Source of the DNA: Fidelibacterota bacterium
GTDB taxonomy: Bacteria > Fidelibacterota > Marinisomatia > SCGC-AAA003-L08 > JACNLC01
Length of the DNA: 64,000 bases
Direction of reading: 5' to 3'
Assembly: GCA_014381725.1 (NCBI GenBank)
Contig: JACNLC010000052.1
Location: forward strand, 744 to 64,743
The translations under genes were made by a program, and so were the position numbers. The notes beneath the pieces are model-generated. The model had not been told where the DNA came from. It made no database searches and saw nothing but the letters and a program-made list of their open reading frames with translations. Shown piece after piece: positions 11,276-49,827 of this stretch; within the stretch, counting starts at the first letter, position 1, and each line of letters starts with the position of its first letter.

Positions 11276-11315
11276 CGATAACAAAATGGGACCGAAAGTT
11301 TTACTTTCCGACCCC
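11276..11315 (-). terminator. Intrinsic terminator downstream of rpsA
   Basis: Minus strand reads GGGGTCGGAAAG-TAAAA-CTTTCGGTCCC followed by ATTTTGTTATCG. It lies about 25 nt after the rpsA stop, and its U-tract ends only about 13 nt before the tsaD ATG. Confidence 0.6.
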
Positions 11316-19718: not shown

Positions 19719-21248
19719 TTAATGATAAAAATGTCTGATTTTTGTTAAACACATGGATAAATCTAATTCATCCGCCCTCTTAATTACTGTGTCATCTTTG
19801 ATAGAACCACCTGGTTGAATGACTGCACTAATTCCCTCTTCGCTTGCTAATTCCAAACTATCTGGAAACGGGAAAAATGCATCAGATGCTATAACTGCAT
19901 TCTCTAAACTTAACCCAGCTTCTTTTGCTTTTCTAATTGCGATTTTCACGGAGTCAACTCTGGACATTTGTCCTGCTCCTACCCCGAGTAATTGATGTTC
20001 ATTTGCAAATACAATTGCATTGGATTTTACAAATCTTACCAAAATCCACCCTAACTTCATTGCGTTAAATTCTGAACTTGTTGGTTTACGATTGGTTACA
20101 ACTTTGAGATTATTTAATTCCCCTTGATCTAAATCTTGCTGTTGATACAAAAATCCACCAGCAACAGATTTTATTCTATATTCATCTAATTGATAATTTG
20201 GTGTAATGGTGATAATTCTCAAATTCTTTTTCTTTTTTAAAATCTTTTTGGCTTCGTCCGAAAAAGAAGGTGCAATAACACACTCCAAAAATGGTTTGAC
20301 TAATTCAATTGCTGTATCCTCATCCACTTCTAAATTGAATCCTACTATCCCACCGAAATAACTTAAAGGATCCGTTGTAACTGCACGAAGATACGCTTCT
20401 TTCAGTGATTTCCCAATCCCAAACCCGCAAGGATTAGAATGTTTGATGATACTACAAGCAGGTTCATTAAATTGTAAAGCAATTGCAATTGCTGATTCCA
20501 TGTCAGCATAATTGTTAAACGATAGTGCTTTCCCTTGATGTTGCTCCCAAGGTATTTCTTTACCAGCTGGAAGATAAAAAGCAGATTTCTGATGTGGATT
20601 TTCACCATATCTGAGTTCATCAGATTTGTATAAATTTATACTGACTGTCTGTGGTAATTCTTGATCATCTTTTGCAAAATAATCAAAAATAGATGACTCA
20701 TATTGCGAAGTCATCGAAAAGACTTTAGTTGCATATTTCTTTCTTATTTCAATAGGAATCTGGCCATCGTTTTCTGTAAACTGTTGCTTAAAATCGTTAT
20801 ACAATTTTGGATCACATAATGGCACAACAGAATGATAATTCTTTGCTGCTGCTCGTATCATTGAAGGTCCACCTATATCAATAAATTCTATAGCTTTTCT
20901 AAAATCCAAACCTTTTTCGACTGCTTCTTGAACAAATGGATAGAAGTTGACAACTATTAAGTCAATTTTACTTCCGCCAATATTTTGCAAATCCGTAATA
21001 TGAGTTTCATTTTCTCTATCAGCAAGAATTCCACCAAATATTTTTGGATCAAGTGTTTTTACACGACCATCCATTACTGAACCCGTGCCAGTGATGTCAG
21101 ATACAGGTGTAACTTTCAAACCTGCATTTTCCAACGCTTTTTGTGTTCCACCTGTGGAGATTAACTCAACTCCACTGCTAGACAAAAACTGTCCTAATTC
21201 AACAATTCCATCTTTAAACCAAACACTTAACAAAGCTCTTTTAATCAC
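19719..21248 (-). CDS. purH: Bifunctional AICAR transformylase / IMP cyclohydrolase
   Basis: MGS-like N-terminus (ALLSVWFKDGIVELG...ISTGGTQKAL), IDIGGPSMIRAAAKN, C-terminal GAGQMSRVDS. Confidence 0.93.
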   Translation of the reverse strand: MIKRALLSVWFKDGIVELGQFLSSSGVELISTGGTQKALENAGLKVTPVSDITGTGSVMDGRVKTLDPKIFGGILADRENETHITDLQNIGGSKIDLIVVNFYPFVQEAVEKGLDFRKAIEFIDIGGPSMIRAAAKNYHSVVPLCDPKLYNDFKQQFTENDGQIPIEIRKKYATKVFSMTSQYESSIFDYFAKDDQELPQTVSINLYKSDELRYGENPHQKSAFYLPAGKEIPWEQHQGKALSFNNYADMESAIAIALQFNEPACSIIKHSNPCGFGIGKSLKEAYLRAVTTDPLSYFGGIVGFNLEVDEDTAIELVKPFLECVIAPSFSDEAKKILKKKKNLRIITITPNYQLDEYRIKSVAGGFLYQQQDLDQGELNNLKVVTNRKPTSSEFNAMKLGWILVRFVKSNAIVFANEHQLLGVGAGQMSRVDSVKIAIRKAKEAGLSLENAVIASDAFFPFPDSLELASEEGISAVIQPGGSIKDDTVIKRADELDLSMCLTKIRHFYH

Positions 21249-21252
21249 TTAT

Positions 21253-21903
21253 TTATTCCTCAATCCAAGATGTTTTATTTTTGCTTATCTTAATCCTATT
21301 CTCGCAAATTGCTTTGACTACTTCAGGATATATTTTATGTTCTTCGATAAGAACTCGTTTAGCTAAATCTTCCGGAGAGTCATCCGGAAACACACTTACT
21401 ATTCTCTGTGCAATTATTGAACCCTTATCATACTCCTCATTCACAAAATGAACAGTTGGTCCGGAATATTTTGCTCCAGATTCAATTACTGCTTTGTGAA
21501 CATTCATTCCGAATAATCCTTTCCCACCAAAAGCAGGTAAAAGTGCAGGATGGATATTAATAATCTTATTTGTATACTCTTTAACAATTTCTTTCGGAAT
21601 CAATTTCATAAATCCAGCTAAAACTACCAAGTCGGCTGTTGAAGCTCGTATACTCGATCGCATTGCATCAAGATAACCAAATTTATCAGGATATCCCTTT
21701 GAATTGATAATAATTGTTGATATCCCATTATTTTTTGCATACTCAATTGCCCCACAAGTTGGGTTGTTGCTAACAACTAGTACAATTTCAGCAGAAATTA
21801 TACTATCTTCAATTTTAGAGTGGATAGCCCTAAAATTTGAACCTCCACCGGATGCAAAAATTACGATTCGTTTAGTACTTTTTTGAGTTAAATTTTCAGT
21901 CAT
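21253..21903 (-). CDS. purN: Phosphoribosylglycinamide formyltransferase
   Basis: IVIFASGGGSNFRAI, LAGFMKLI, INIHPALLPAFGG. Confidence 0.9.
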   Translation of the reverse strand: MTENLTQKSTKRIVIFASGGGSNFRAIHSKIEDSIISAEIVLVVSNNPTCGAIEYAKNNGISTIIINSKGYPDKFGYLDAMRSSIRASTADLVVLAGFMKLIPKEIVKEYTNKIINIHPALLPAFGGKGLFGMNVHKAVIESGAKYSGPTVHFVNEEYDKGSIIAQRIVSVFPDDSPEDLAKRVLIEEHKIYPEVVKAICENRIKISKNKTSWIEE

Positions 21904-23225
21904 TTTGAAATAATTTCTCCTATTACGAAAGACTCAGTATTATCTAACAATTTTACTTGATAGATTTTGTTATTCAAATTTTTTGATGAAGTTACTCGCA
22001 CACGAATATAGTTTGATGTCATCCCTGAAGAAAATCCATCTTTACTTGTTTCAAACAAAACAGTTTGAGCAGTGTTAATAAACTTTTCAACATATTGTTT
22101 TTTCTTGTTATTACCGATTTGGTGCAAAATTACACTACGCTCTTTTTTCAATTGTTGATCAATTTTATTTTTCAGTTTTGAGGCAACTGTTCCATCTCTC
22201 TCAGAATATCTAAAAATATGCAAATATGAAAATTGTGAATTTGAAATAAAATCCACAGTTTCTTGAAATTCTTCTTCTGTCTCTCCTGGAAAACCAGTAA
22301 TAATATCTGTTCCACAACTAATGTTTGGGACTATCTTTTGTATTCTATCTTGAAGTGAGATAAAATCACTTATAAAATATTTTCGTCCCATTCGTTCTAA
22401 AACAGTATTGGATCCACTTTGTAATGGAATATGAAGATGGTTGCAAATATTATCTCGCTCCTTGACTAATTGAAGTAAGTTATCTGTTATTGTATTAGGT
22501 TCTATTGAACTGATACGAATTCTATGTAATCCACTTATTTGACTTAGTTTGTCCAATAAATCACACAGTTTAAGTGATTCTGCATTCCAAGTTCCGATAT
22601 TAATTCCAGTAAGAATAATTTCTTTAAAACCTAAATCAACCAATTTTTGAGCTTCTTCAATGCAATCATAGAGTTTTCTACTTCTAGCTCTACCTCTTGC
22701 AAATGGTATAATACAATATGTGCAAAAATAATCACAACCCTCTTGGACTTTCAAGAAGGCACGAGTTCGACCTGTAGATGAGATAAATGGAGATTCTTTG
22801 TAAGCAGTTATTTCTCCCGAGTCATTGACATAAACTAATGGATTTTCTAACTTACTACTCTCTATTTTATTAAGATAATCAAAGATTTGATATTTCTCGT
22901 GTGTACCAAGAATCAAATCAATTCCTTTGATACTTTTCAATTCCTCAGGACTAACTTGAGAATAACAGCCAACAACTATCACACGACAGTTTGGTGAAGA
23001 TTTAACAGCAGTTCGGATTGCTTGCCTACTTTTACTGTCTGCTGAATTAGTAACTGTACAAGTATTAATTATTGTTAAATCTGCTGGATTTCTAAATGGA
23101 ACAATTGTGTAACCATATTCTTCAAATCTCGTTCTTAGAGAATTGGTTTCAGCTTGATTCAACTTACACCCAAGTGTATGAAAACTAACAGTTTGAATTT
23201 TATCTATTTTCGTATTGATAGTCAT
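21900..23225 (-). CDS. mtaB: Radical-SAM methylthiotransferase, MtaB-like (ms2t6A tRNA modification)
   Basis: UPF0004 N-terminus (VSFHTLGCKLNQAE), radical SAM CDYFCTYC, C-terminal TRAM-like region. Confidence 0.8.
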   Translation of the reverse strand: MTINTKIDKIQTVSFHTLGCKLNQAETNSLRTRFEEYGYTIVPFRNPADLTIINTCTVTNSADSKSRQAIRTAVKSSPNCRVIVVGCYSQVSPEELKSIKGIDLILGTHEKYQIFDYLNKIESSKLENPLVYVNDSGEITAYKESPFISSTGRTRAFLKVQEGCDYFCTYCIIPFARGRARSRKLYDCIEEAQKLVDLGFKEIILTGINIGTWNAESLKLCDLLDKLSQISGLHRIRISSIEPNTITDNLLQLVKERDNICNHLHIPLQSGSNTVLERMGRKYFISDFISLQDRIQKIVPNISCGTDIITGFPGETEEEFQETVDFISNSQFSYLHIFRYSERDGTVASKLKNKIDQQLKKERSVILHQIGNNKKKQYVEKFINTAQTVLFETSKDGFSSGMTSNYIRVRVTSSKNLNNKIYQVKLLDNTESFVIGEIISK

Positions 23226-23500
23226 GAACTCACTTAACTAGGTAATGCAATTGTATCATTTTGTAATCCATAAAAGGATTTTCTTGCCAAATTTAGAATG
23301 TTATTTGATTTTATCACTGGAATTTACTCATAATTATCGTACCGAAATTTAGATAATTCATTCTTTTCTTCCCAATCTTTAGTATCCAGTTTGAAAGATA
23401 ATTCTCTTTTATTTAACTTCTCAACTACCTAAATTTTATAAATATTTCGAATACAAGAACAAGTATTACAAGATTACCAACACTTAAAATAGGATTATTA

Positions 23501-24283
23501 TTGAAACACTTATCTCAAAATGACTTTCAAAACTGGAGTGATTATTATCGAGAGTATCAACTCAGATTGGCAAAAGATTATTATATCCCTTTATTAGAAG
23601 AATGGGATTTCTCGGTTACAAGAAAGAAAATTTTAGATATAGGTTGTGGAGATGGTGGTTTTACTTCTGCATTTACTGATTCTGCAAACAGTTGCTCAGG
23701 CATAGAAATTAAATCTTTTGATTGGTCGAAAATATCGAATGTGAATTTTCTAGTTCAAGATATTACTAAATCTAATGCAGTGGAAAATATCGGGAATGAG
23801 TTTGATTTAATCATTCTTCGAGATGTTATTGAACATATTCCACTTGAAAATAAACAAATGTTTTTGGATTCGCTATCAAAGTTTGCACATTCAGAAACAA
23901 AAATATTGATTACTTATCCTCCATTTTACTCACCATTTGGTTTGCATCAACAAACTTTTTTGAAATCTAAATTAAGTAAAATCCCTTTTTTGAGTTGGGC
24001 ACCATCTATTCTCCTACAACCATTACTTAGACTTGTAAAAGAAAACGAAACTGCGATTGAAAATATAAAATACATTCGAGATTGTCGAATGACTATCTCT
24101 AATTTTGAAAAACTAATAAAGCAATCTAACTTTGTTATTGAACAAAACAAATTCTATTTTACTAGACCATCTCACGAAATTCGATATGGATGGAAAACTC
24201 GAATATCTCCATTTGGCAGTATTCCGTTATTAAGAGAGATTTTGGTTTTGGGGACTGTTTATTTGCTGAGTGCTGAAAAATAA
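23501..24283 (+). CDS. Class I SAM-dependent methyltransferase (substrate unknown)
   Basis: Motif I ILDIGCGDGGFT and post-I/II region DLIILRDVIEHI. TTG start. One of only four plus-strand genes. Confidence 0.7.
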   Translation: MKHLSQNDFQNWSDYYREYQLRLAKDYYIPLLEEWDFSVTRKKILDIGCGDGGFTSAFTDSANSCSGIEIKSFDWSKISNVNFLVQDITKSNAVENIGNEFDLIILRDVIEHIPLENKQMFLDSLSKFAHSETKILITYPPFYSPFGLHQQTFLKSKLSKIPFLSWAPSILLQPLLRLVKENETAIENIKYIRDCRMTISNFEKLIKQSNFVIEQNKFYFTRPSHEIRYGWKTRISPFGSIPLLREILVLGTVYLLSAEK

Positions 24284-24327
24284 TAGTGATTTCTTTTCCT
24301 TTTGTTTAATATCAAATTATCACCAAC

Positions 24328-25251
24328 TCATTCAAACAATGCCGTACTCAAGTACCGCTCTCCGGTATCCGGACAAATTACAAGTAGATTCTCGTTTTCT
24401 TTCATTCTTTTTGAAACCTGAATAGCGGACCAAACGGCAGCACCTGTTGATATGCCTGCTAGAATTCCTTCCTCTTTAGCAATTTTCTGGGTCATAAATT
24501 TCGCATCTTCATCAGTAACTTGAATGATTTTATCATAAATAGTTGTATCCAATATTTCTGGTATAAATCCTGCACCAATTCCTTGTATGATATGTTTACC
24601 GGGAGAACCGCCAGATAGCAATGGCGATTTTTTTGGTTCTACTGCTATAATTTGAATCTTTGGAAAATACTCGCGTAAAATTTTTCCTGCACCTGTAATT
24701 GTTCCACCTGTTCCAATTCCGGCTACAAAATAGTCTAATCCTGTTTCTTTGAACTCATCAATAATTTCCGGACCTGTAGTTTTTCTGTGAATTTCTGGAT
24801 TAGCTAAATTCTTAAACTGCATCGGCATAAAATATCCAAATTTTTTCTGTAACTCAATGGCTTTTGCGATTGAGCCTGTCATTCCTGGACCAGCTTCAGG
24901 TTTAATCAAGATAATCTCAGCACCAAAAGCTTTTAGAATAGCAACTCTTTCTTGCGAAACCGTTTCTGGCATCGTTAATATCAGTTTATATCCCCTTTGA
25001 GCAGAAATATATGCCAAAGCAATTCCTGTATTCCCCGAAGTTGGCTCGAGTATTGTATCTCCTGGTTTCAATAATCCTCGTTCTTCAGCATCGAGAATCA
25101 TGCTCAATCCAATTCGATCTTTAACACTACTCATTGGATTAAATGTTTCAAGTTTTCCCCAGACATTTATTGAAGGATTCTCCACAATTTCGTTGAATCT
25201 GACGATTGGTGTATTTCCAATCAATTCTAAAATATTGTTATATTTTGCCAT
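24328..25251 (-). CDS. cysK: Cysteine synthase A (O-acetylserine sulfhydrylase)
   Basis: NPMSSVKDRIGLSMI (PLP Lys), TSGNTGIALAY, GIGTGGTITG. Confidence 0.9.
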   Translation of the reverse strand: MAKYNNILELIGNTPIVRFNEIVENPSINVWGKLETFNPMSSVKDRIGLSMILDAEERGLLKPGDTILEPTSGNTGIALAYISAQRGYKLILTMPETVSQERVAILKAFGAEIILIKPEAGPGMTGSIAKAIELQKKFGYFMPMQFKNLANPEIHRKTTGPEIIDEFKETGLDYFVAGIGTGGTITGAGKILREYFPKIQIIAVEPKKSPLLSGGSPGKHIIQGIGAGFIPEILDTTIYDKIIQVTDEDAKFMTQKIAKEEGILAGISTGAAVWSAIQVSKRMKENENLLVICPDTGERYLSTALFE

Positions 25252-26132
25252 TAATTTTTCCGTTTCTTTTTAATTAACTTTGGATGTTCCGAAATAAATA
25301 CAACTGTATGGTCAGGAATATCTTCTTCAATCCAAGAATTTGCGCCTATATTTACATTATTCCCAATATTCACCGGACCTAAAATTTTTGAACCTGCACC
25401 AATGACTACATGGTTGCCAATATTTGGATGTCGCTTATACCCTTTTTTTAGGATTTCATTTTCATTCTCATCTTTTTCAAAATGTAAAGCACCCAATGTT
25501 ACTCCTTGATAAATCCTGACATGATCTCCAATTATGCAAGATTCACCAATAACAACACCAGTTCCGTGATCAATAAAAAAATACTCACCTATTTCAGCTC
25601 CAGCATGAATGTCGATTCCTGTCATTTTATGAATATGTTCGTTCAATTCTCTTGCATAAGAAGATGCACCTTTTTTGTAAATTTGATTAGTAATCCGTTG
25701 CACCATTACTGCACAAGTTGCCGGATAAGAGCGAATTATTTCAGTATAGCTCGTTGCAGATGGGTCTCCGCTATATGCCGCTTGAATATCCTTCTTCATT
25801 TTATCACGAATTTCAGGTAATTTATCAATAACCTCTCTGACAATTAAAGCCACTTTATCTTTGTCGGCGATATACGGATTTAGTCCCAAATATAGTGAAA
25901 GCCCAAAATCATTTAATTTACTTTCAAGTTGTGATTTATTATTAGGAACACTTAGAAATCCACAGTTCCAATAATTTGGGAATAGAAGTTCTTTCATATA
26001 TTCCAGTTCCGTAAAACAAGGCTCTCGCTTTGGAAAACTGATATGTTGATCTGATATAAACGGCTCTGTATCGGTTGAATACGAGCTAAGCAAATTGTCA
26101 GCTACATTTGTTTGTATTTGATAATATTTCAT
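25251..26132 (-). CDS. cysE: Serine O-acetyltransferase (long form)
   Basis: Left-handed beta-helix hexapeptide repeats (GAEIGEYFFIDHGTGVVIGESCIIGDHVRIYQGVTLG ... IGNHVVIGAGSKILGPVNIGNNVNIGANS). 1-nt overlap with cysK. Confidence 0.85.
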   Translation of the reverse strand: MKYYQIQTNVADNLLSSYSTDTEPFISDQHISFPKREPCFTELEYMKELLFPNYWNCGFLSVPNNKSQLESKLNDFGLSLYLGLNPYIADKDKVALIVREVIDKLPEIRDKMKKDIQAAYSGDPSATSYTEIIRSYPATCAVMVQRITNQIYKKGASSYARELNEHIHKMTGIDIHAGAEIGEYFFIDHGTGVVIGESCIIGDHVRIYQGVTLGALHFEKDENENEILKKGYKRHPNIGNHVVIGAGSKILGPVNIGNNVNIGANSWIEEDIPDHTVVFISEHPKLIKKKRKN

Positions 26133-26206
26133 ATTTGATTTTGTTTTATTATTAATTAATTATTTAACTAAAACTAATACTTTATTTACACACAAACAAC
26201 TGAATT

Positions 26207-26722
26207 TTATCTCAATTTAGTTCTATTATCATAATCTTTGCATTCATAACAAATTTCTTTTGAGATTACATTAAATTGTTGCAAATGTTTATATATCCAG
26301 CAACCAGCACAAAATCCAAATATTGATTCCAGACTTGCAAATAATAACAAAACTAATATGATTATCTTAGAAACTTCTATTAATCCAGATATTGCTAAAA
26401 CAAGTGAAATAGTTGATAATATACCACCAATAGTCTGTGCAAATCTCTTCGGCCGGCTATTTTCCATCGATTTGGGATTACCCAAAATTGGTATAATTAC
26501 TTTTGATGATAATAATGTTAAAGGACTGAAAATTTGACCAGCAATTACTCTAGCCCAAAATCCATAACTTATAAACACCAAAACAATCGAATTTTCTGTG
26601 AATAGATATACAATTGATAAAATGCTAACTAAAGTCGCTACAACTCTTATTGTATATACATTCACATACTCTGGATATTTTAACCAATTTAATTGAAATT
26701 TACTGTCTTTATTATTCTTCAT
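26207..26722 (-). CDS. Small 4-TM membrane protein, DUF4395-like, with C-terminal Cys motifs
   Basis: Four predicted TM helices. Conserved-looking FGFCAGCWIY plus C-terminal CYEC. First gene of the operon with cysE/cysK. The family assignment is from memory of the CxxC-containing DUF4395 pattern, not from a search. Confidence 0.4.
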   Translation of the reverse strand: MKNNKDSKFQLNWLKYPEYVNVYTIRVVATLVSILSIVYLFTENSIVLVFISYGFWARVIAGQIFSPLTLLSSKVIIPILGNPKSMENSRPKRFAQTIGGILSTISLVLAISGLIEVSKIIILVLLLFASLESIFGFCAGCWIYKHLQQFNVISKEICYECKDYDNRTKLR

Positions 26723-26741
26723 TGTTTACCCTTTCCTTTAT

Positions 26742-26780
26742 AAAACAAAAAACCCTTCTATCTATACACGATGAAGGGTT
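26742..26780 (-). terminator. Intrinsic terminator / candidate attenuator immediately upstream of the DUF4395-like-cysE-cysK operon
   Basis: Minus strand reads AACCCTTCATC-GTGTATA-GAT(A)GAAGGGTT followed by TTTTGTTTT. Only about 19 nt, containing AAGGAAAGGG, separate the U-tract from the operon ATG at 26722. Confidence 0.55.
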
Positions 26781-26803
26781 ATTAAAAGTTTTTAACAAAA
26801 TAC

Positions 26804-26878
26804 CTACTCTTGCATAGATCTCCCACATTGCTGGCAACAACAACAGTTTGAAAAAGTAGATATTTGTAGTTTCTTCAT
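26804..26878 (-). CDS. Candidate Cys-rich leader peptide (24 aa): MKKLQISTFSNCCCCQQCGRSMQE
   Basis: My translation of the minus strand: ATG AAG AAA CTA CAA ATA TCT ACT TTT TCA AAC TGT TGT TGT TGC CAG CAA TGT GGG AGA TCT ATG CAA GAG TAG. There are four consecutive Cys codons plus a fifth. The stop lies 23 nt upstream of the terminator hairpin. No clear Shine-Dalgarno sequence. Confidence 0.4.
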   Translation of the reverse strand: MKKLQISTFSNCCCCQQCGRSMQE

Positions 26879-26888
26879 TGCACTTAAA

Positions 26889-26917
26889 TTAATACTGAAG
26901 TTATTTAGATACAAGAA
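26889..26917 (-). promoter_or_regulatory. Possible sigma70-type promoter for the leader/cys operon transcript
   Basis: Minus strand reads TTCTTG - 17 nt - TATTAA. The predicted start would fall only a few nt before the leader ATG, making the leader ORF nearly leaderless. By-eye prediction only. Confidence 0.25.
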
Positions 26918-26923
26918 TTATAT

Positions 26924-26937
26924 TTGCTATTTAGCAA
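26924..26937. promoter_or_regulatory. Perfect dyad TTGCTA-NN-TAGCAA just upstream of the putative -35
   Basis: 6-bp perfect arms with a 2-nt spacer. That is too tight for an RNA hairpin, so it is more consistent with a dimeric DNA-binding protein site. It lies 11 nt after the GNAT stop. Confidence 0.25.
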
Positions 26938-26947
26938 TTATTGTTTA

Positions 26948-27385
26948 TTATTTATTAATTGTCTTCTGAAGTTTGTAATGTTGAATAGAATCAAATAGCA
27001 GGTGAGTTTTCTCATTTATAGTATACCCATGACGATAATAAAAGTCTAATGCTATTTCTCGGGCTTGGAGGATTATATTTTTAGCTCCATTCTCTTTGGC
27101 TAATTTTTCGAGTTCTTTGAGTAACTTAGAACCATATCCATTTTTTTGGAATTTCTCATCTACTGCCATCCAGCGGATTTGTGCAATTGAATCCTCAACA
27201 AAATGCAATCTCCCTACGGCAATCACTTTCCCAGAATCATCAACAATCATTCTATGCAAACAGACAGATTCATTATCGTCTATTTCACTTCCACGCGGTT
27301 GATTCCAAGGCTTGCGTAAAATCCTCCATCGAAGATTGTAATATTCTTCAAACTCTATTTTTGTTTTTGGGGTGATTATTTTCAA
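26948..27385 (-). CDS. GNAT-family N-acetyltransferase
   Basis: Acetyl-CoA binding motif A region IRWMAVDEKFQKNGYGSKLLKELEKLAKENG. 145 aa. Confidence 0.8.
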   Translation of the reverse strand: MKIITPKTKIEFEEYYNLRWRILRKPWNQPRGSEIDDNESVCLHRMIVDDSGKVIAVGRLHFVEDSIAQIRWMAVDEKFQKNGYGSKLLKELEKLAKENGAKNIILQAREIALDFYYRHGYTINEKTHLLFDSIQHYKLQKTINK

Positions 27386-27411
27386 ATTGAACTAAACTGG
27401 ATTTCTATTGA

Positions 27412-28971
27412 TTACCACCAAATCTGTTTCCCATTTTCGATTGTGAAAATTCGTTCTTCTTTTCTAGAGTCTTTTTCAACAAGCCAATATAAACAACCAA
27501 TGGGAACATTCTCAAAGAGCATTGGTTGTTTGGATGCAATTTTCGAACCTAGAGAGATCCACTCATCATTCCAATAAAAGAATTCATACTCTTTTTCTTC
27601 TTTCAAAAAAGTGATAATTTTCCCTTCAGTTGCTTGTGCAATTGTTTTTTGAGTAGTTGATACTAAACTTATATCGTGGATAGAATTCTTATCTAATGTC
27701 AATTCAGTTAAAGCCCCATTATTCTGAAGAATAAATGGATTATCCGCTTGAATCAATTCCTCATCAATATAGAACATCGGTAAATATGCAATATCGACTC
27801 CCATATCGGAAAACAGCACAGAATTATCAACTATTTCTGACCAATGAATCGCCTTCCAATCACCAGAATTGAAGACACATAAATATGCAAACCGAACACT
27901 ATCAGGAATTTCTGAAAACTCTAATCTAACATCTGAAACGGAAGTATATTGTTTAGTTACATCAGTATAATATTTCCCAGACAACCAACCAGGTGCTTTT
28001 TCCCACTCTTTGAGTTTGAATGCAAGGTTATCATATTGTTTAGAATAAGTTTTTCTATAAGCTTTTGCCATTTTTGTTCGGAGTTTATAAGTAGTCGGAT
28101 CGCTCTCGCACCCCATAAAAGGTATTGCTTCTCCATCGGGAGTTAGTATTGCATTCCAAGCGTGATTATTGCCAGTATCTGCCCAATGTGGTGTATAATC
28201 ACTTGTTACTGGAATCCCATTTGCTCGCATTGCATAAATAGCTAAATTTGTCATATCTTCGCATCGTCCCAGTCCTGTTTTGCACATTTCTGAGTAACCT
28301 TGATCAGTTGGATGTAGATAAAAACGAGGATCAAATTTAAACCAAGATTTAATATCCTGATTGATAAATTTTGCTACTTCAATCAAGTCATTTGAATCTT
28401 TAAGTTCAGATGAAATTCCAGTATATTTAGTTTGTAATTCTTTTCTCCAATGCTCTATAGGTTCATTACTTCCACGATATGGTAAAATGTTTTCTTTAAA
28501 GTCATTATAAGTAATATTTTTCGACCAAGTACTTTCTTCCCAAGACTTGAATGCAAACTCGATATTTTCGATAAGTAACTCAGAAGTAATTGTTTCCAAA
28601 TCCAAATCCAATTTCAATCTGCCATAATGTAACTCCCCAAACTCATCTTCAATCTGATTTAGTTTGACAATGATTGAATCATAATTATCATAATCGAGAA
28701 CATTGAATTCAATTTCTGTTTCTGTTGAATCAAAAAAGCCAACCTCAGAATAAAGATGATCCTCCATATTACCAATTAGATAATACAAAGCATCCAATTG
28801 TAATGAATCACCTTTTGTCTTAAAGTGATGAATTGCGTTTAGTAATTCCGACTTGTTTCCTTTTGCTTTAACTAAATTTTCTCTTACAGCTTTTGGATAT
28901 GAATTTGAATAGCACAGAAGAAAAAGCGATACAACTACACTAATAAATATAATAATTTTCTGATTTTTCAT
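27412..28971 (-). CDS. Secreted transglutaminase-like (papain-fold Cys protease superfamily) protein
   Basis: N-terminal signal/anchor. Core GLGRCEDMTNLAIYAMRANGIPV ... NNHAWNAILTPDGE fits the Cys...His...Asp transglutaminase-core arrangement. Confidence 0.65.
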   Translation of the reverse strand: MKNQKIIIFISVVVSLFLLCYSNSYPKAVRENLVKAKGNKSELLNAIHHFKTKGDSLQLDALYYLIGNMEDHLYSEVGFFDSTETEIEFNVLDYDNYDSIIVKLNQIEDEFGELHYGRLKLDLDLETITSELLIENIEFAFKSWEESTWSKNITYNDFKENILPYRGSNEPIEHWRKELQTKYTGISSELKDSNDLIEVAKFINQDIKSWFKFDPRFYLHPTDQGYSEMCKTGLGRCEDMTNLAIYAMRANGIPVTSDYTPHWADTGNNHAWNAILTPDGEAIPFMGCESDPTTYKLRTKMAKAYRKTYSKQYDNLAFKLKEWEKAPGWLSGKYYTDVTKQYTSVSDVRLEFSEIPDSVRFAYLCVFNSGDWKAIHWSEIVDNSVLFSDMGVDIAYLPMFYIDEELIQADNPFILQNNGALTELTLDKNSIHDISLVSTTQKTIAQATEGKIITFLKEEKEYEFFYWNDEWISLGSKIASKQPMLFENVPIGCLYWLVEKDSRKEERIFTIENGKQIWW

Positions 28972-28973
28972 TC

Positions 28974-29795
28974 TTATTTTGCTTTCATAGCTGGATTTGA
29001 ACCAGATTTAGCGGAACATTCTTCCCAAAGAAAACACCAATCGCACAACCTAGATTCCTTCGGATAGAAATTACTTAAATTATTAGATGTTATTATTATC
29101 TCATCAACTTTTTCGACTAATTGTTTTTTAATATTAAGAATATCAGATTCAGAATGTTTTACGCAAACCTCAATTCCCTTTCTTAGATAGTGCCATTTCA
29201 ATACAACTTCATCGACTTGCTCAAAATGTTGCTCAATTGCAATTTGGTACATTGCAAGTTGTAAATCTTTCTGTGCGGCCTTTTGCATTTTTGTCCTTTT
29301 ACCAGTTTTATAATCGTGGATAACAAACTTACCTTTTGAAGGTTGATCCAAACGATCAATGACTCCTTTAAACAAATATTTCCCATCAATAGTAAACTCA
29401 AGTAACAACTCAGTCTCAACCACTTTTTCAGAAAATATCGGGCCATACTTGTTATAATAGTTAGACAAGCATCTTTTACCGGTTGTATAAAGTTCGTCTG
29501 TAGTACAACGATAATTTGGAATATGAATTTTGTCATGCCAATTTTCTACCCAGATTTCATCATAAGTTCTACATATTCTGTCGAAAGTGATATAAGGTTT
29601 TGCACGGTTTTGTGGATTGTACAACCACTCAAGAGTTTCATGAACACATTTCCCCATATAAGCTTCAATGCTCTCTTGTTCTTTTCTAAGTCCGTCAATA
29701 TATACTATTTTAAATTGTTCTTTGCAAGTTTTGAATGTACTTAATCCAGAAAATGAAAAGTGATTATCTAATGATAAAATTGATTTTTGCTTCAT
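28974..29795 (-). CDS. PD-(D/E)XK nuclease, Cas4/AddB-like with 4-Cys (Fe-S) cluster motif
   Basis: N-terminal Cys (FKTCKEQF). Nuclease core GVIDRLD ... FVIHDYKTGK, followed by QLAMYQIA (QxxxY). C-terminal CDWCFLWEEC (CX2CX5C). No CRISPR or cas genes nearby. Confidence 0.75.
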   Translation of the reverse strand: MKQKSILSLDNHFSFSGLSTFKTCKEQFKIVYIDGLRKEQESIEAYMGKCVHETLEWLYNPQNRAKPYITFDRICRTYDEIWVENWHDKIHIPNYRCTTDELYTTGKRCLSNYYNKYGPIFSEKVVETELLLEFTIDGKYLFKGVIDRLDQPSKGKFVIHDYKTGKRTKMQKAAQKDLQLAMYQIAIEQHFEQVDEVVLKWHYLRKGIEVCVKHSESDILNIKKQLVEKVDEIIITSNNLSNFYPKESRLCDWCFLWEECSAKSGSNPAMKAK

Positions 29796-29796
29796 A

Positions 29797-30975
29797 CTAC
29801 CATACCCCTTGTATTAGTCTAAACTCTCCAAATCCGTTATCCTTAAATATGAATTGACGATTATCAGGATATGTCCAAATTTGATAAATAGCAGTGCTAC
29901 TTCTGCGGGTTGTTTCTACATTGTCTGGTTGACCGTGTACAATAAATATTCTTCCTCTGTCAGTTCTCCAACCAGTTCCAAATGTTGAGAAATGCTGATT
30001 TGCTTCTTCTACACGATTATAGAATTCTTCCATTAACTCGTTTTTATCTGTATCAGGAGATGGATCTTTCTTTTTCCAATAATCAACAATGAATAATTTT
30101 TGCTCCATTTTGCTTAATTTTTCTAATTTTTTAAATTCTACATCGGATAAAATTAGAGCAATAATTCCAACAGCTTCATCAATGTCTATCAGAAATTTGT
30201 CCATACCATGGCGTTTAATGAAAACTGATATTTCCTTTACACTTTCCATCAATTTTAACTGGATTTTCAGTTTCCCACTCCAATTATTTTCTAATGGTAT
30301 TGGAAGTAAACAAAATTCTTCTAATTTAATATCAGAAATTTTGAGTGAATCAAATAGTAATTCTTCTTCACCAAACATAACTGAATAAGACAAATTTTCA
30401 TCAATTAATTCTTCAGAGATTTGGAACTTGCAAAAGAGAGTATCAATATCATCTTGGAACCTAGGTCCAACAAAACGTAGTGAATCATTTTGTTTAGTCA
30501 ATGGAATAACATCACTCATTATTTCAAATTGTTGAACTAAGATATTCTGATTAACATTCCATTGATGTCGGCTATCGGTATCTTGAACATTTAGTGATAA
30601 ACGATACTCGCCCTCTGGTTGACAAAATGTTGTAAAAGTGCTGATAGTTTTTTTTCTATTCCGTGTATCATCATAAAATTCCTCTTCGACATTCTCATTC
30701 CAACTATAATTATATACTTGCAAATTTGAGTTTAAATCAGTTACAGTTAGAGAAAGTTCAATTTCGGCAAAGAAACGATCTTGTTTTTTTGTGAATACTA
30801 AATAATCATACGGAATAAAAGCATAAAGTGAAATATCAAATTCATCCTGTGATTCATTAATCAATGTGTGAGAATACAACTTAATTTTAGATCGTTCTTC
30901 ATTCTTCTTAAAACTAAAAGGAATGCTACAGCTCCACAAAAGAACTAAAATAATTATGAAATATCTAATTTTCAT
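29797..30975 (-). CDS. GWxTD domain-containing lipoprotein (function unknown)
   Basis: Lipoprotein-like signal (ILVLLWSC). C-terminal FSTFGTGWRTDRGRIFIVHGQPD matches the GWxTD signature. Confidence 0.7.
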   Translation of the reverse strand: MKIRYFIIILVLLWSCSIPFSFKKNEERSKIKLYSHTLINESQDEFDISLYAFIPYDYLVFTKKQDRFFAEIELSLTVTDLNSNLQVYNYSWNENVEEEFYDDTRNRKKTISTFTTFCQPEGEYRLSLNVQDTDSRHQWNVNQNILVQQFEIMSDVIPLTKQNDSLRFVGPRFQDDIDTLFCKFQISEELIDENLSYSVMFGEEELLFDSLKISDIKLEEFCLLPIPLENNWSGKLKIQLKLMESVKEISVFIKRHGMDKFLIDIDEAVGIIALILSDVEFKKLEKLSKMEQKLFIVDYWKKKDPSPDTDKNELMEEFYNRVEEANQHFSTFGTGWRTDRGRIFIVHGQPDNVETTRRSSTAIYQIWTYPDNRQFIFKDNGFGEFRLIQGVW

Positions 30976-32596
30976 TTTGATGATATCTACTCCAATTGTA
31001 GAAAGCTATTCCATTGTTCGTGCCAAACCAAACCCAGTCTTCATCGCAATCTATTGTATAAATCTTTTGTCCGGGTATTCCATCCTCGTTTGTGTAAACC
31101 CATTCTCCTCCAGTTTTCAAGTTCAGTAATAGAACTTCATCAATCGAACTTATCCATACGAAATCCCCAGATAATGCAAAATCAACAACTTTATTGTGTA
31201 AAAGCTGGATTTTATCTTGTGGATTTATCTTCCACAATTGTCTATCAGAAGCAAGAACAATGTCTTCCTCTACTTTAACTTGTCTAATAAATTTATCTGA
31301 GAGAAATTCCCATTTTGATTTGGTTAAATCTTCTCGATATAAACCACCTTCTGATGCTATATACAAAAATCCACCTGAAATTTCTAAATCATATATTTCT
31401 AAATCACGAAATAATTGAAACCTATCCTCTTCGAGTGAAACGACAACATTCCCAATTGTAGAAAATTCGTTTATTCCACGAGCTGTAGCAATATAAATTG
31501 AATTTTCAATTTGCACCATATCCCAAACAGAACTATCTAATAACCCTCGGCGAACATGAACATTTTGCCATTCCCTTTTTCTTATATCCAAAATCAACAA
31601 ACCATCCATCGTTCCAATATAAAGGAAATCTCCAGAACGAAAAAAACAATTAACATTTGTGTTTTGGATACTAACGGACTCATCTGAATAATAATATTTC
31701 CACTCGTTTTCATCTTCAATCCATTGAGTCAAAAACATATTGTGATTATCAATAACTGCACCTTTTCTACGATATTCGCTATCAGCAAACCACCATTCTC
31801 CATTATTCTTGTCTTCAAATATTTCCGTAATAAATTTTTGCCCTGGTCCAATACTAACCATAGTGAATCTATTAGAATAATAAGGTTTCTTTAAAATGTC
31901 ACCAAAGATTGTACCAAACCACTCATTTCCTTCTGAATCAATCATTGAAACAGTTACTTGATGATTATCAAATCGTCTTTTGGAAAACATATTCTCTTGC
32001 GATTGATTTTCCAAAAATCCAATATCTCTAGAATTTTCTCCACTTTGACCAAATCTTGAGTAACCCCAATTAATCATATTTACATCAATCATTTCATCTT
32101 CTTCTAGATACTTAATCTCTCCAGTAAATGGATCAACTGGAACGATATATGAAGAAGTTTTAATATAAACATAATCACCATTACTACCGATATCTTCAAC
32201 ATCCAATGGATGGATAGTATTAAAATTTGTATCGTGTATTTCGTTCCATCGTGTTGCTAATGATGATTTGTAATTGATACCATCTTTATGTACAATCCAA
32301 AAGAAATCTGTGTAAGAATCATAATAATAATGGTAAATCTTCTTAGATGGTAAATATCTAGATGAAACATGATCATATACAATTTCTTTTGTTGTTCTGT
32401 CATACTCGTAAATACCATTATCCGAAGCAAAATAAATTTTGAATGGAGTTTCTGCAATTGCATTAATTGTGCCGGGATGAGATAGAATATACCAATCATC
32501 TTCTTGATAAATATAATTTTGAGAATACGTAATTGTGAGTAATAGACTTATGTACATAACTAAACTACAATTCCTAAATAAATGCAAGAAATTCAT
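30965..32596 (-). CDS. Secreted beta-propeller-like protein (Reg_prop-like repeats), function unknown
   Basis: Signal peptide, then recurring blade-like motifs: YIGTMDGLLILD, YIATARGINEF, YIASEGGLYRED, WFGTNNGIAFYNW. 11-nt overlap with the downstream GWxTD gene. Confidence 0.45.
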   Translation of the reverse strand: MNFLHLFRNCSLVMYISLLLTITYSQNYIYQEDDWYILSHPGTINAIAETPFKIYFASDNGIYEYDRTTKEIVYDHVSSRYLPSKKIYHYYYDSYTDFFWIVHKDGINYKSSLATRWNEIHDTNFNTIHPLDVEDIGSNGDYVYIKTSSYIVPVDPFTGEIKYLEEDEMIDVNMINWGYSRFGQSGENSRDIGFLENQSQENMFSKRRFDNHQVTVSMIDSEGNEWFGTIFGDILKKPYYSNRFTMVSIGPGQKFITEIFEDKNNGEWWFADSEYRRKGAVIDNHNMFLTQWIEDENEWKYYYSDESVSIQNTNVNCFFRSGDFLYIGTMDGLLILDIRKREWQNVHVRRGLLDSSVWDMVQIENSIYIATARGINEFSTIGNVVVSLEEDRFQLFRDLEIYDLEISGGFLYIASEGGLYREDLTKSKWEFLSDKFIRQVKVEEDIVLASDRQLWKINPQDKIQLLHNKVVDFALSGDFVWISSIDEVLLLNLKTGGEWVYTNEDGIPGQKIYTIDCDEDWVWFGTNNGIAFYNWSRYHQNEN

Positions 32597-32603
32597 ACTT
32601 AAC

Positions 32604-34130
32604 CTAATTGAAATTCTTTTTTTTAAGTAAACTCTTGCCAGTCATTGCTTGGGGTTGCTTTAGATTAAAATAATCTAAAATTGTCGGAGCGATATCGGCT
32701 AATTTTCCGTCTCCTCTTAATGCAATATCAGTTTTTGGTGAATCAACAATAAATGGAACTGGAAATAATGTATGAGCTGTATATGGTTCACCAGTTTCGG
32801 GATTTGACATCATTTCTAAATTCCCATGATCTGATGTTAAAAATATAGTCGCATCCTTTAGTTTCGCTTGTTCAATGACCAACGCTAGACATTCATCAAC
32901 AACTTCGATTGCTTTGATTCCAGCAGGCAGAATGCCAGTATGTCCGACCATATCAGGATTGGCGTAATTCAAAATAATGGTTTCAAATTTATCTGATTTA
33001 ATGGCATCTATCACTTTTTCAGTAACTTCATAAGCACTCATTTCTGGTTGTAAATCGTAAGTTGCTACTTTGGGAGATGGAATCATTATCCGTTCTTCTC
33101 CTGGGAATATATGTTCATCACCTCCATTCAAAAAATATGTAACATGTGCATACTTTTCAGTCTCAGCGATTCTGAGTTGACGATATCCTTCTTTAGATAA
33201 AACTTCCGGAAAAATATCAGCCAATTTCACAGGAGGAAATAGCACTGGAAATTTAAATGAATCTTGATATTCGGTCATGCTTACATATTGAATTTCTATA
33301 TTTTTTGTTTTAAATTCATTAAAATCTGTTTCAGTAAAAGCTGTAGATATTTCTCTCATTCTATCTGCACGAAAGTTGAGGGCTAAAACACCATCGCCGT
33401 TATTAATGTTCTTGAATTTTCCAATTATTTTTGGAGTAATGAATTCATCTGTAATACTATCTTGATAGGAATTTTCAATAGCTGATATCGGATTATCAAA
33501 TCTATCTCCTTCACCAAACACCATTAACCGATACCCTCTTTCAACACGATCCCATCTTGTATCTCTATCCATTGTGAAATATCGTCCGCAGATTGAAGCA
33601 ATTTCCCCAATTCTGATTTCATCAAGATAATTTTGCAAATCTTTGATATAGTTTTTTCCACTATTTGGAGGTGTATCTCTTCCATCCATTATTGCGTGAA
33701 TGGATACATCTTTTAGTCCAAAGTCTTTTGCTGCTTTTATAATATATTTCAAATGGTCAATATGACTATGAACTCCTCCATCACTTATCAAGCCCATTAA
33801 ATGTAGAGTAGATTTTTGATTTTTGATTTTGGTAAATAGGTTAACTAATACCGGATTGTTTCGAAGAATATCTTGTTTGATATCATCATTTATTCTAACC
33901 AAATCTTGTTTGACGATTCTTCCTGCACCAATGTTTGTATGCCCAACTTCAGAATTACCCATAACTCCATTTGGCAAACCAACTGCATTGCCAGATGTTT
34001 CTAGAAGAACCATCGGTTTACTAGATATTAGCTCGTCCAAATTTGGTGTGTTAGCTAAAGCATAAGCATTGGATTTTTTTTCATCTCGTATTCCAAAGCC
34101 ATCGAGAATTATTAGGATAAATTTAAGCAC
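32604..34130 (-). CDS. gpmI: 2,3-bisphosphoglycerate-independent phosphoglycerate mutase
   Basis: LIILDGFGIRD, GNSEVGHTNIGAGR, SDGGVHSH, TSDHGN. GTG start. Confidence 0.92.
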   Translation of the reverse strand: MLKFILIILDGFGIRDEKKSNAYALANTPNLDELISSKPMVLLETSGNAVGLPNGVMGNSEVGHTNIGAGRIVKQDLVRINDDIKQDILRNNPVLVNLFTKIKNQKSTLHLMGLISDGGVHSHIDHLKYIIKAAKDFGLKDVSIHAIMDGRDTPPNSGKNYIKDLQNYLDEIRIGEIASICGRYFTMDRDTRWDRVERGYRLMVFGEGDRFDNPISAIENSYQDSITDEFITPKIIGKFKNINNGDGVLALNFRADRMREISTAFTETDFNEFKTKNIEIQYVSMTEYQDSFKFPVLFPPVKLADIFPEVLSKEGYRQLRIAETEKYAHVTYFLNGGDEHIFPGEERIMIPSPKVATYDLQPEMSAYEVTEKVIDAIKSDKFETIILNYANPDMVGHTGILPAGIKAIEVVDECLALVIEQAKLKDATIFLTSDHGNLEMMSNPETGEPYTAHTLFPVPFIVDSPKTDIALRGDGKLADIAPTILDYFNLKQPQAMTGKSLLKKKNFN

Positions 34131-48621: not shown

Positions 48622-49827
48622 TTAGTCGCTGAATGAATGCCCAAGCGCATCAAGAACAGGAATAAACCAATCTAGATTATTTTTATGAGAATCATAAGAG
48701 AATACACAGACACCGTTAAACCCATTTAATCTAGTTAAAAGCACTTTGTCAGCAGCAGATTGAGCATCTTGATTGTAAGTTGCCACACCCATCACTACTT
48801 TATCTAATTCAAAAGAAGAAAGAACTGTTTTCATTAATTGAATGTCTTGATTAAAGTACTTTATTTCTTTATAATAATTCATCGGAATCACAAAATCTAC
48901 AAGGTTAGTTTTTATCCAAAATTGCCAATCTTGATACCATCTCGTTTGTGCTTTACTTATATTTGGTTTTACTGCTGCACTAAGTAAAATTTCTTTACCA
49001 GAACTATCTATATCGGATTTAATCCAACTTACAAGTTCAGAAATTTTATCAGCCCTAAATTGATTCCAAGCATTGTGCATCGAATCAACAAACGACTCTT
49101 CCCAACCAAATCTAGTACTTATAATTCCTCTAGCGATATCTAAAGGATCTATGCCATAGATTTCATCAAAATCATCTCTTCCTTCTGGGTTATATCCGTA
49201 GAAATCGTCCTGATAGCGTATATAATCCAGATGAATCCCATCAACATCATAATTATTAATAACTTCAGCATATACTGTTCGCAAGTAAGGATTTACTTCC
49301 GGGTGGGTTGGTGCTAAATAAATTCCCTCCCATTGCGGTGATTGAGGAGTACTTAAATCAATTCGCCAATCCATTTTTGAATGGTGGTTAGCCTCTGTCC
49401 ACTCAGGATGTCTAAGATAGATATGCTTATCATTATTAGGTGGTTTTTTACCTGACCATAAAATGTAACTGTTCATCCAAGCGTGGACTTCTAATCCAAG
49501 GGAATGTCCTAGCTGAACAGCATAATGTAAAGGATCAAAGTCATCAGCAATATTAGGATTTTTAACAACAATACTAGATTGATAAAATGCATCACCTCGT
49601 CCTCGAACTTGTACAAATACTTTGTTAAAGTCAGATTTATAAGCATACATCAAAGCTGAATCAATTTGTTCGGAAGTGATCAAGCTTTCTCTGATAATCC
49701 ATAATCCACGAGATTGTAGTTCATCAAACTGAGAGAAAGATAATTGAGGAACAAAAATAAACAGGGCTATGAAACTCAAAGCCCTGTTATATGGAAATAA
49801 TAGATTCTTTATAAATCTAGTAAACAC
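48622..49827 (-). CDS. Secreted glycoside-hydrolase-like family 10 (GHL10/DUF187, YngK-like) protein
   Basis: Signal peptide. RGLWIIRESL, VQVRGRGDAFY, VDGIHLDYIRY are typical of GHL10. GTG start 9 nt after the rplQ stop; the start is uncertain because a terminator hairpin lies inside the first 25 codons. Confidence 0.7.
   Translation of the reverse strand: MFTRFIKNLLFPYNRALSFIALFIFVPQLSFSQFDELQSRGLWIIRESLITSEQIDSALMYAYKSDFNKVFVQVRGRGDAFYQSSIVVKNPNIADDFDPLHYAVQLGHSLGLEVHAWMNSYILWSGKKPPNNDKHIYLRHPEWTEANHHSKMDWRIDLSTPQSPQWEGIYLAPTHPEVNPYLRTVYAEVINNYDVDGIHLDYIRYQDDFYGYNPEGRDDFDEIYGIDPLDIARGIISTRFGWEESFVDSMHNAWNQFRADKISELVSWIKSDIDSSGKEILLSAAVKPNISKAQTRWYQDWQFWIKTNLVDFVIPMNYYKEIKYFNQDIQLMKTVLSSFELDKVVMGVATYNQDAQSAADKVLLTRLNGFNGVCVFSYDSHKNNLDWFIPVLDALGHSFSD
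49750..49788 (-). terminator. Strong intrinsic terminator of the ribosomal-protein/rpoA/rplQ operon, embedded in the 5' coding region of the next ORF
   Basis: Minus strand reads AACAGGGCT-TTGAGTTTCAT-AGCCCTGTT (9-bp perfect stem) followed by TATTTTTGTT. It lies about 50 nt after the rplQ stop. Confidence 0.7.

Follow-up and report, generated by a model that had tools for sequence, protein, structure and literature searches.

The minus-strand spacer between a GNAT gene (stop codon at 26950-26948) and a DUF4395-cysE-cysK operon (ATG at 26722) is probably a cysteine-responsive, ribosome-mediated attenuator of that operon. It lies in the window analyzed here, a 64-kb stretch of Marinimicrobia DNA with 34% G+C and 62 predicted proteins. 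The spacer contains a short open reading frame (sORF) with four consecutive Cys codons and, downstream of it, a predicted intrinsic terminator that is followed almost immediately by the first gene of the operon. A sister species selectively retains the sORF, its Cys run, and the terminator, and in other lineages, too, poly-Cys sORFs precede homologous cysE genes more often than expected by chance. The principal elements of the leader and of the operon are as follows.

26878-26804, minus strand: sORF with ATG at 26878 and TAG at 26806-26804, 24 codons plus the stop codon, encoding MKKLQISTFSNCCCCQQCGRSMQE*
26834..26845, minus strand: regulatory Cys run, TGT TGT TGT TGC, codons 12-15, the proposed ribosome stall site
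26742..26780, minus strand: predicted intrinsic terminator, consisting of the 11-bp stem AACCCUUCAUC/GAUAGAAGGGUU with one bulged A, a loop of 7 nt, and the U-tract UUUUGUUUU
26723..26741, minus strand: 19-nt spacer between the U-tract and the operon ATG at 26722, with the purine-rich ribosome-binding region (AAGGAAAGGG) of DUF4395
24328..26722, minus strand: DUF4395-cysE-cysK operon, assigned by Pfam matches; the gene order is also found in sister-species contigs L149 and L140
26722-26207, minus strand: DUF4395 gene (Pfam match, E 4e-33)
26132-25251, minus strand: hexapeptide serine acetyltransferase gene cysE (Pfam match)
25251-24328, minus strand: cysteine synthase gene cysK (PALP, Pfam match)

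The sORF, its Cys codons, the hairpin, the U-tract, and the 19-nt gap had all been described in the initial annotation of this locus, and each of them is present where that annotation placed it. The ORF is initiated by ATG and contained within the GNAT-DUF4395 spacer. Among all six frames of the 64-kb window, TGY x4 occurs only in this Cys run (approximately 0.08 such runs expected), which is situated on the sense strand of the cys leader; Cys accounts for 0.8% of the 62 predicted proteins, in agreement with the earlier description of the genome as Cys-poor. A fifth Cys of the window sORF is encoded by codon 18. The run is also read by an alternative +2 frame (a TTG-initiated ORF of 43 codons, 26843-26712, minus strand), which was set aside as incidental, since it has no ATG and the other poly-Cys loci share the Cys frame only. 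This +2 frame reads the Cys run as Leu (x4) and crosses the terminator into the start of DUF4395; its counterpart in L149 is open for approximately 40 codons.

The predicted intrinsic terminator is well supported. The hairpin AACCCTTCATC/GTGTATA/GATAGAAGGGTT at 26780-26751 starts 23 nt past the sORF stop codon, is followed by the U-tract TTTTGTTTT (also given as UUUUUUGUUUU) at 26750-26742, and folds at -13.2 kcal/mol with pair probabilities of approximately 1.0 in all folds; a simple terminator scan missed it solely owing to the bulged A in the stem. The window differs from L149/L140 by four substitutions in the terminator, which fall in the loop (two), the bulge, and the U-tract, that is, at unpaired positions only. 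Since a strong terminator stands 19 nt before the first gene and leaves no room for a promoter, conditional read-through is implied. The terminator starts 167 nt past the GNAT stop codon, whereas two other window terminators that were checked are positioned 24 and 45 nt past their genes. One of these ordinary intrinsic terminators (11276-11315, minus strand) is located 24 nt past the upstream stop codon and 13 nt before the next ATG (11262); the other (49750-49788, minus strand) is located approximately 45 nt past the upstream stop codon and approximately 100 nt before the next start. The initial annotation had described both as abutting the next gene, which is correct for the former and not for the latter. 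Because the terminator at 11276-11315 also abuts a start codon, and does so in this compact genome with no leader ORF involved, the placement of a terminator just before a gene proves nothing by itself.

The strongest evidence comes from the comparison of the leader with its counterpart in the sister species, and thus from two Marinimicrobia-type species, the second being represented by contigs L149 and L140. Contig L140 was reached via a CysK relative (80% identity), and L149 is a long contig from the same 90% cluster. Each of the three operon products has a 100% identical counterpart in a Candidatus Marinimicrobia metagenome-assembled genome (MAG); besides that MAG, the nearest relatives in the protein collection show 51% identity for DUF4395, 62% for CysE, and 80% for CysK. 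The order of genes in L140/L149 is the same as in the window, comprising transglutaminase, GNAT, the spacer, DUF4395, cysE, cysK, and, further on, a radical-SAM gene; in the window, the genes upstream of the spacer encode GNAT, transglutaminase-like, PD-(D/E)XK, and GWxTD proteins. Between the two species, CysE and CysK are 80% identical at the protein level, 76% identical at the DNA level, and 52% identical at third codon positions. DUF4395 diverges far faster than its operon partners (44 vs. 80% protein identity). The L149 sORF encodes MKLMKIQTIHNCCCCRQSGRSMQE* and has 24 codons, as in the window. Along the leader, conservation is distributed as follows (all segments on the minus strand, window vs. 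L149 unless noted).

Codons 1-10: 50% identity
AAC and the four Cys codons (AAC TGT TGT TGT TGC): 15/15 identical, L149/L140
Codons 16-18, including the fifth Cys: 44% identity
26803..26824: invariant 22-nt block GGGAGATCTATGCAAGAGTAGG, 22/22 identical, L149/L140
Post-stop spacer: 36% identity
Terminator 5' arm: 11/11 identical
Terminator loop: 5/7 identical
Terminator 3' arm: 11/12 identical, the change being at the bulge
U-tract: 8/9 identical
Shine-Dalgarno (SD) region of DUF4395: 37% identity

The terminator arms together are identical at 22/23 positions in L149/L140. The 22-nt block spans the six final codons, the stop codon, and GG, and it contains the strand referred to below as segment 2; its flanks are only 36-44% identical. 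All seven codons of the C-terminal GRSMQE* are nucleotide-identical in the sister species, whereas approximately 54% would be expected for identical residues, and this codon-for-codon identity points to a constraint at the RNA level. Reading frame, Cys run, and terminator are retained while the remaining spacer drifts at a neutral rate. Conservation in relatives had been named in the initial annotation as the main check on the attenuator, and the sister species does retain an sORF of 24 codons with its four Cys codons, as well as the terminator and precisely the same spacing (sORF ATG and DUF4395 ATG 156 nt apart in both), while the other parts of the spacer have diverged. That annotation had counted five Cys codons; four of them form the invariant run, and the fifth (codon 18), although present in the window, is not conserved in the sister. 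In population contigs of the window species (L081-L084) the leader is identical, with no divergence to compare.

When metagenomes were scanned using an alignment of this CysE clade, 46 loci were obtained. Poly-Cys sORFs are enriched upstream of the homologous cysE genes, with 4 in 14 kb of upstream sense strand, whereas 380 kb of background contain 2 (P 1.2e-6, Poisson). The following sORFs, each preceding a member of the same cysE(-cysK) clade, were found outside Marinimicrobia, some of them via relatives of CysK.

L098, 799-864: poly-Cys sORF MSKKQQNKKISFCCSCCCMCC, upstream of the cysE clade
L111, 2390-2446: poly-Cys sORF MDLTKSTKSFFCCCCCNC, upstream of the cysE clade
L112, 2376-2423: poly-Cys sORF MKCQNSMNMNCVCCC, adjoining S13-S4-S11 in archaeal order
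L131, 115-159: poly-Cys sORF MGYANKFKFCCCCC, upstream of the cysE clade
L137, 1180-1245: sORF of CC type MQRNRQTHECACFFECCSACC, upstream of the cysE clade
L142, 2479-2541: poly-Cys sORF MFKQQRIKSKNFCSCCCCCC, found via CysK relatives, adjoining ribosomal proteins L31e and S19e
L144, 1453-1515: poly-Cys sORF MVIKQQSKKNFCRCCCVCCC, found via CysK relatives

The non-Marinimicrobia peptides have little in common but a lead-in of 9-13 residues and the Cys run, with which the ORF usually closes, and this points to a codon sensor rather than a functional peptide. In all seven non-Marinimicrobia sORFs (7/7), TTTAWATA with an A-rich 5' flank is located 21-24 nt before the sORF ATG, a position that corresponds to the geometry of the archaeal B recognition element (BRE)/TATA box and would be compatible with a leaderless transcript. 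Archaeal ribosomal-protein genes are present on at least two of the seven contigs (L142, L112), and the source names of CysE/CysK relatives include Woesearchaeota and Aenigmatarchaeota; most of the non-Marinimicrobia poly-Cys loci look archaeal. We tentatively consider it possible, at somewhat less than even chances, that the poly-Cys sensor ORF is a module accompanying one cysE-cysK clade across the boundary between bacteria and archaea, and that the Marinimicrobia element is its bacterial derivative, equipped with a sigma-70-type promoter and a Rho-independent terminator.

Several further features of these loci were observed. In L098 (~850-880), L142 (~2527-2556), and L144 (~1500-1530), the last Cys codons pair with their complement just past the stop codon (UGUGU:ACACA, GUUGC:GCAAC, UGUUG:CAACA); the arms vary by locus and stay complementary, and a T-rich tract lies 8-15 nt beyond the hairpins (T6 in L142 and L144). 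An analogous Cys-codon hairpin, GUUGUU with CAAU, is found in the window and in L149. Repeated GGTGAT(A/G)A motifs occur between the poly-Cys sORF and cysE in L098 (~915-985) and L131 (~195-250), and L098 has a second, SD-preceded sORF, MINITIINSDDKFEEFEDK, in the same interval.

Two elements lie upstream of the sORF.

26886..26914, minus strand: putative sigma-70-type promoter, TTGTAT (26914-26909), 17 nt, TAATTT (26891-26886), and 7 nt to the sORF ATG
26921..26940, minus strand: upstream element TAATTGCTAAATAGCAAATA, an imperfect palindrome TTGC-N6-GCAA just past the GNAT stop codon and upstream of the putative -35 box

The promoter geometry of L149 is identical (TTGCAC-17-TAACTT-7-ATG), although the stretch is only 45% identical overall, so that TTGnnn-17-TAAnTT-7-ATG is common to both. 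No SD precedes the sORF, which the initial annotation had listed as a weak point; the observation stands, whereas the weakness does not, given that an SD core is found in just 27 of the 62 window genes and that the shared promoter geometry is compatible with a leaderless or near-leaderless start. The upstream element is largely kept in L149 as TAATTGCTGAATGACAAATA while its flanks diverge. It forms a 5-bp hairpin in the window fold, which is weakened in L149, and it may serve as a binding site for a regulator or as a 3' hairpin belonging to the GNAT gene.

For the complete spacer, the folding z-score is -3.0. Two pairings in addition to the terminator bear on the proposed switch.

26850..26865, minus strand: segment 1, forming the leader hairpin's 5' half, with AAAUAUCUACUU paired to GAGUAGGUAUUU (26809-26798) and UUUC to GAGA (26822-26819)
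26763..26816, minus strand: candidate antiterminator 2:3; UAUGCAAGA (26816-26808) and AGG (26805-26803) pair with CCU (26777-26775) and UCGUGUAUA (26771-26763)

In the minimum free energy (MFE) folds of the window, the leader hairpin spans the stop codon; its apical part contains the Cys codons, base-paired with CAGCAAUG. The segment 1:2 duplex has an energy of -15.3 kcal/mol, and only 0.4% of shuffles are as good (P=0.004). The partner of segment 2 in the candidate antiterminator is a part of the terminator 5' arm plus the entire loop. This 2:3 register is the MFE structure of the fragment 26826-26763 with segment 1 masked (-9.3 kcal/mol in the window and -8.5 kcal/mol in L149/L140), and 22 of 24 cells are paired (92%), compared with 29-62% in slid registers. 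When a stalled ribosome was simulated on Cys codon 12 or 15, the best nascent-RNA fold in L149 paired 26816-26803 with the terminator arm and loop, and a ribosome placed at the stop codon masks exactly the strand 26816-26803. The 2:3 pairing would also explain the conservation of 14 of the 22 invariant nucleotides and of UGU in the terminator loop. The antiterminator pairing proposed in the initial annotation (AUGCAAGAG:CCCUUCAU) is never chosen by folding and is no better than chance; the longer pairing described here was found instead.

Other pairings were tried and rejected. The start-codon region AUGAAG can pair with CUUCAU of the 5' arm at -9.7 kcal/mol, and 31% of shuffles are equal. Sequestration of the SD by the 5' arm (CCCUUC against GAAAGGG) was ruled out, as it is not conserved in L149, and the DUF4395 SD region (26741-26723) is unpaired, or involved in a weak local loop only, in all folds. 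At 26813-26824 (minus strand), the invariant block opens with an SD-like GGGAG located 5 nt before the in-frame AUG of Met22; together they constitute a potential mini-ORF, MQE-stop, inside the leader.

Computation establishes the sORF with its Cys run, the terminator, the selective conservation of these parts, and the recurrence of poly-Cys sORFs before homologous cysE genes; sORF translation, stalling, a leaderless start and, above all, the antiterminator step are inferred. Transcription would probably start at or just before the sORF AUG, and the 24-codon leader would be translated by a ribosome. With ample Cys-tRNA(Cys), this ribosome would reach the UAG at 26806-26804 and cover approximately 26821-26791, that is, segment 2; after its release, segment 1 would capture segment 2, and the hairpin at 26780-26751 with the U-tract would then halt RNA polymerase 19 nt short of the operon. 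Under a shortage of Cys-tRNA(Cys), the ribosome would stall with the first Cys codons (26845-26834) in the A site, covering segment 1 and leaving 26816-26803 free. This free strand may then pair with the emerging terminator 5' arm and loop (26777-26763), which would delay the terminator and allow read-through into the cysteine genes.

A number of observations weigh against such an attenuator. The antiterminator is weak (-9.3/-8.5 vs. -13.2/-16 kcal/mol for the terminator in the two species), and 42% of dinucleotide shuffles of the upstream strand pair with the terminator arm as well as the native one. At equilibrium, the probability of the terminator is approximately 1 in every ribosome position (Cys codons 12-15, 18, and the stop codon), so that any switch must be kinetic, whereas all folding performed here is thermodynamic. 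RNAalifold on the two species fails to recover the antiterminator and yields only the Cys-codon hairpin, a small stop-codon hairpin, and the terminator; the antiterminator shows no covariation, as its paired parts are invariant between only two species. The 1:2 pairing is significant in the window only, being weak in L149 (-8.5 kcal/mol, P=0.135), where cross-species pairings are as good as the cognate ones, and no 1:2 covariation was found between the two species. The antiterminator model does not account for the first 8 nt of the invariant block (GGGAGAUC), and most of the related poly-Cys loci do not have a canonical hairpin-plus-U terminator, so that the family taken together is not dependent on a terminator as output. 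Finally, the putative promoter, which would yield a leaderless or near-leaderless sORF mRNA, is deduced from two sequences. The folding check suggested in the initial annotation has a divided outcome: a competing pairing does emerge as the MFE structure under the stall mask, and it is weak, matched by many shuffles, and accompanied by a terminator that always forms. As modeled, the terminator/antiterminator switch would have the correct register and is statistically unsupported.

The same observations feed the main rival explanation, in which the poly-Cys sORF is a true Cys-tRNA sensor whose output is not a terminator/antiterminator choice but DUF4395 translation initiation, mRNA stability or processing, or Rho, and the hairpin is a constitutive leaky terminator or a stabilizing 3'/5' structure. 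Besides the lack of a statistically supported antiterminator, of canonical terminators at most related loci, and of an explanation for GGGAGAUC in the antiterminator model, this rival can draw on the dissected mycobacterial poly-Cys sORF, which unmasks an SD and has no terminator (10.1101/834739). We regard it as unlikely, at roughly one chance in several, because the DUF4395 SD is sequestered in no predicted fold and lies in a region that is only 37% identical, because the terminator stem and U-tract are among the best-conserved parts of the leader, which is hard to explain if they stand outside the regulatory decision, and because a strong terminator with no promoter room behind it implies conditional read-through.

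Two further explanations were considered. The sORF might be an independent gene for a Cys-rich micropeptide (e.g., a metal- or redox-active one) with its own terminator; the cys operon would then depend for its expression on unrelated read-through or on a promoter that overlaps the hairpin. The GRSMQE C-terminus and the Cys run are indeed conserved as amino acids between the two species, and a terminator right after a small gene is an ordinary layout; the nucleotide identity of the seven GRSMQE* codons, however, exceeds the expectation for a conserved peptide, the N-terminal half is free to vary, the sORFs of other lineages have nothing in common but their Cys run and their location upstream of cysE while their peptides differ and end right after the run, and the 19 nt before DUF4395 are too short for a promoter, all of which makes a micropeptide gene improbable. 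Least probable, and scarcely credible, is that the ORF arose by chance and that the hairpin is the leaky terminator of the upstream transglutaminase-GNAT operon. At least one other window terminator (11315-11276) likewise abuts the next start codon, but chance would have to supply the sole Cys run in 64 kb, place it on the sense strand of a cys leader, preserve it in the sister together with the sORF length and spacing while the neighboring spacer reached neutral divergence, and make poly-Cys sORFs as frequent before cysE genes of this clade as they are (P~1e-6); the distance from the GNAT stop codon (167 nt, compared with 24-45 nt for the other terminators checked) also speaks against it. The attenuator thus remains our preferred explanation.

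The genomic context of related operons is consistent with a sulfur-sensing leader at this position. SAM-I riboswitches (79-81 bits) are located directly upstream of DUF4395-cysM-mec-moeZ in L085 (2725-2835), L086 (2735-2845), and L087 (14-124), and a SAM-I/IV riboswitch (51 bits) is located directly upstream of cysE in L094 (697-813); since these occupy the same position in uncultured relatives, a sulfur-sensing leader is to be expected there. The Marinimicrobia leader resembles them in its position and presumably in its purpose, feedback control of sulfur amino-acid synthesis. It differs in that SAM-I and SAM-I/IV bind the metabolite directly via an RNA aptamer, whereas the window leader has a putative translated sensor in place of an aptamer. 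A permissive Rfam search (cmscan of positions 20000-34000, E<=10) found no family match within 26723-26947, the five matches elsewhere being snoRNA-like and attributable to chance, and the same 14-kb search found no match to SAM aptamer, T-box, or amino-acid leader families.

DUF4395 has an invariant CxxC...CxxC pattern and is operonic with cysteine synthesis in marine relatives, its partners being cysE-cysK in the window, L140, and L149, and CysM-Mec(JAB)-ThiS/ThiF/rhodanese in L085-L091. This suggests a sulfur-related role of DUF4395 in this lineage. Among 80 DUF4395 loci in GTDB genomes, all from Chloroflexota, Actinomycetota, or Leptospira, a cys gene within 3 kb was observed in one (1/80); these 80 loci include no Marinimicrobia and are uninformative for the leader.

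Classical attenuators (trpL, hisL, leuL, thrL, and pheL) consist of a leader ORF with codons for the pathway's end product and a terminator before the first structural gene. The Marinimicrobia leader has the same layout, with a short leader ORF containing a run of end-product codons and a predicted intrinsic terminator before the first structural gene. As in the trpL/hisL type, its leader hairpin includes the end of the ORF, and the strand that could compete with the terminator is the one that a ribosome positioned at the stop codon would cover. It departs from this type in sensing cysteine, in having no SD and probably a leaderless start, in the position of the Cys codons, which lie in the apical part of the leader hairpin and not inside segment 1, and in its antiterminator, which is weak and only a candidate; there is no sequence relationship.

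The initial annotation did not recognize a Cys version of these attenuators as a standard element. None is represented in Rfam, as it supposed, but such leaders have been published. Candidate leader peptides with Cys runs and without terminators were described upstream of cys operons in Actinobacteria (Seliverstov 2005, PMC1262725), and experiments on leaderless polycysteine sORFs of M. smegmatis demonstrated that they relieve a duplex sequestering the SD; in mycobacteria, a run of two to three or more Cys codons is enough for Cys-responsive attenuation (Canestrari 2020, 10.1101/834739). For cysS, two Cys codons followed by a terminator constitute the uORFC-8-2 motif of Rhodobacterales (PMC8632094), and a leaderless leader of 10 amino acids with two Cys codons is known in Deinococcus deserti (PMC4007540).

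Like the polycysteine sORFs of mycobacteria and other Actinobacteria, the window sORF is short, heads a cysteine-metabolism operon, and contains an uninterrupted series of Cys codons; it also lacks an SD, its promoter geometry is compatible with a leaderless mRNA, and, on the proposed model, it would sense low charged tRNA(Cys) by a stall. In contrast to the mycobacterial case, in which a duplex hides the SD and no terminators were found, it has a conserved predicted Rho-independent terminator and an SD that is not sequestered, and it differs from the actinobacterial leaders in phylum (Marinimicrobia), operon (DUF4395-cysE-cysK), and sequence. With the cysS leaders it has in common Cys codons in an upstream ORF (uORF), followed by a terminator-like stem and a U run, an arrangement read as ribosome-mediated attenuation. 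The cysS leaders, however, control a tRNA synthetase by two Cys codons and belong to other lineages, whereas the window leader precedes a biosynthetic operon, contains four Cys codons, and has neither sequence similarity to them nor an Rfam match. The sensing logic is thus common to all the published Cys leaders, the terminator is as in the cysS cases, the biosynthetic target is as in the mycobacterial ones, and the phylum is a different one.

Should the archaeal-looking sORFs be functional, archaea, DPANN-type genomes among them, would possess amino-acid attenuators of the ribosome-mediated kind. The literature yielded no account of leader-peptide attenuation in archaea, although the search was limited and does not prove absence. 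The archaeal poly-Cys loci are perhaps the more valuable lead, since they make archaeal ribosome-mediated attenuation directly testable.

Control of cysteine biosynthesis is usually ascribed to proteins (CysB, CymR), T-boxes, or SAM riboswitches; Cys-codon leader peptides are, to our knowledge, a demonstrated means of control in mycobacteria only and a predicted one for a few cysS genes. The locus described here would extend this principle, in the textbook form of a leader ORF and an intrinsic terminator, to Marinimicrobia/SAR406, an uncultured and globally abundant marine phylum. As a concrete cis-element, the leader lends itself to searches of metatranscriptomes, where it may serve as a read-out of cysteine or sulfur limitation in situ. 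If our interpretation is true, the cell most likely raises the expression of its cysteine-synthesis genes when cysteine is short.

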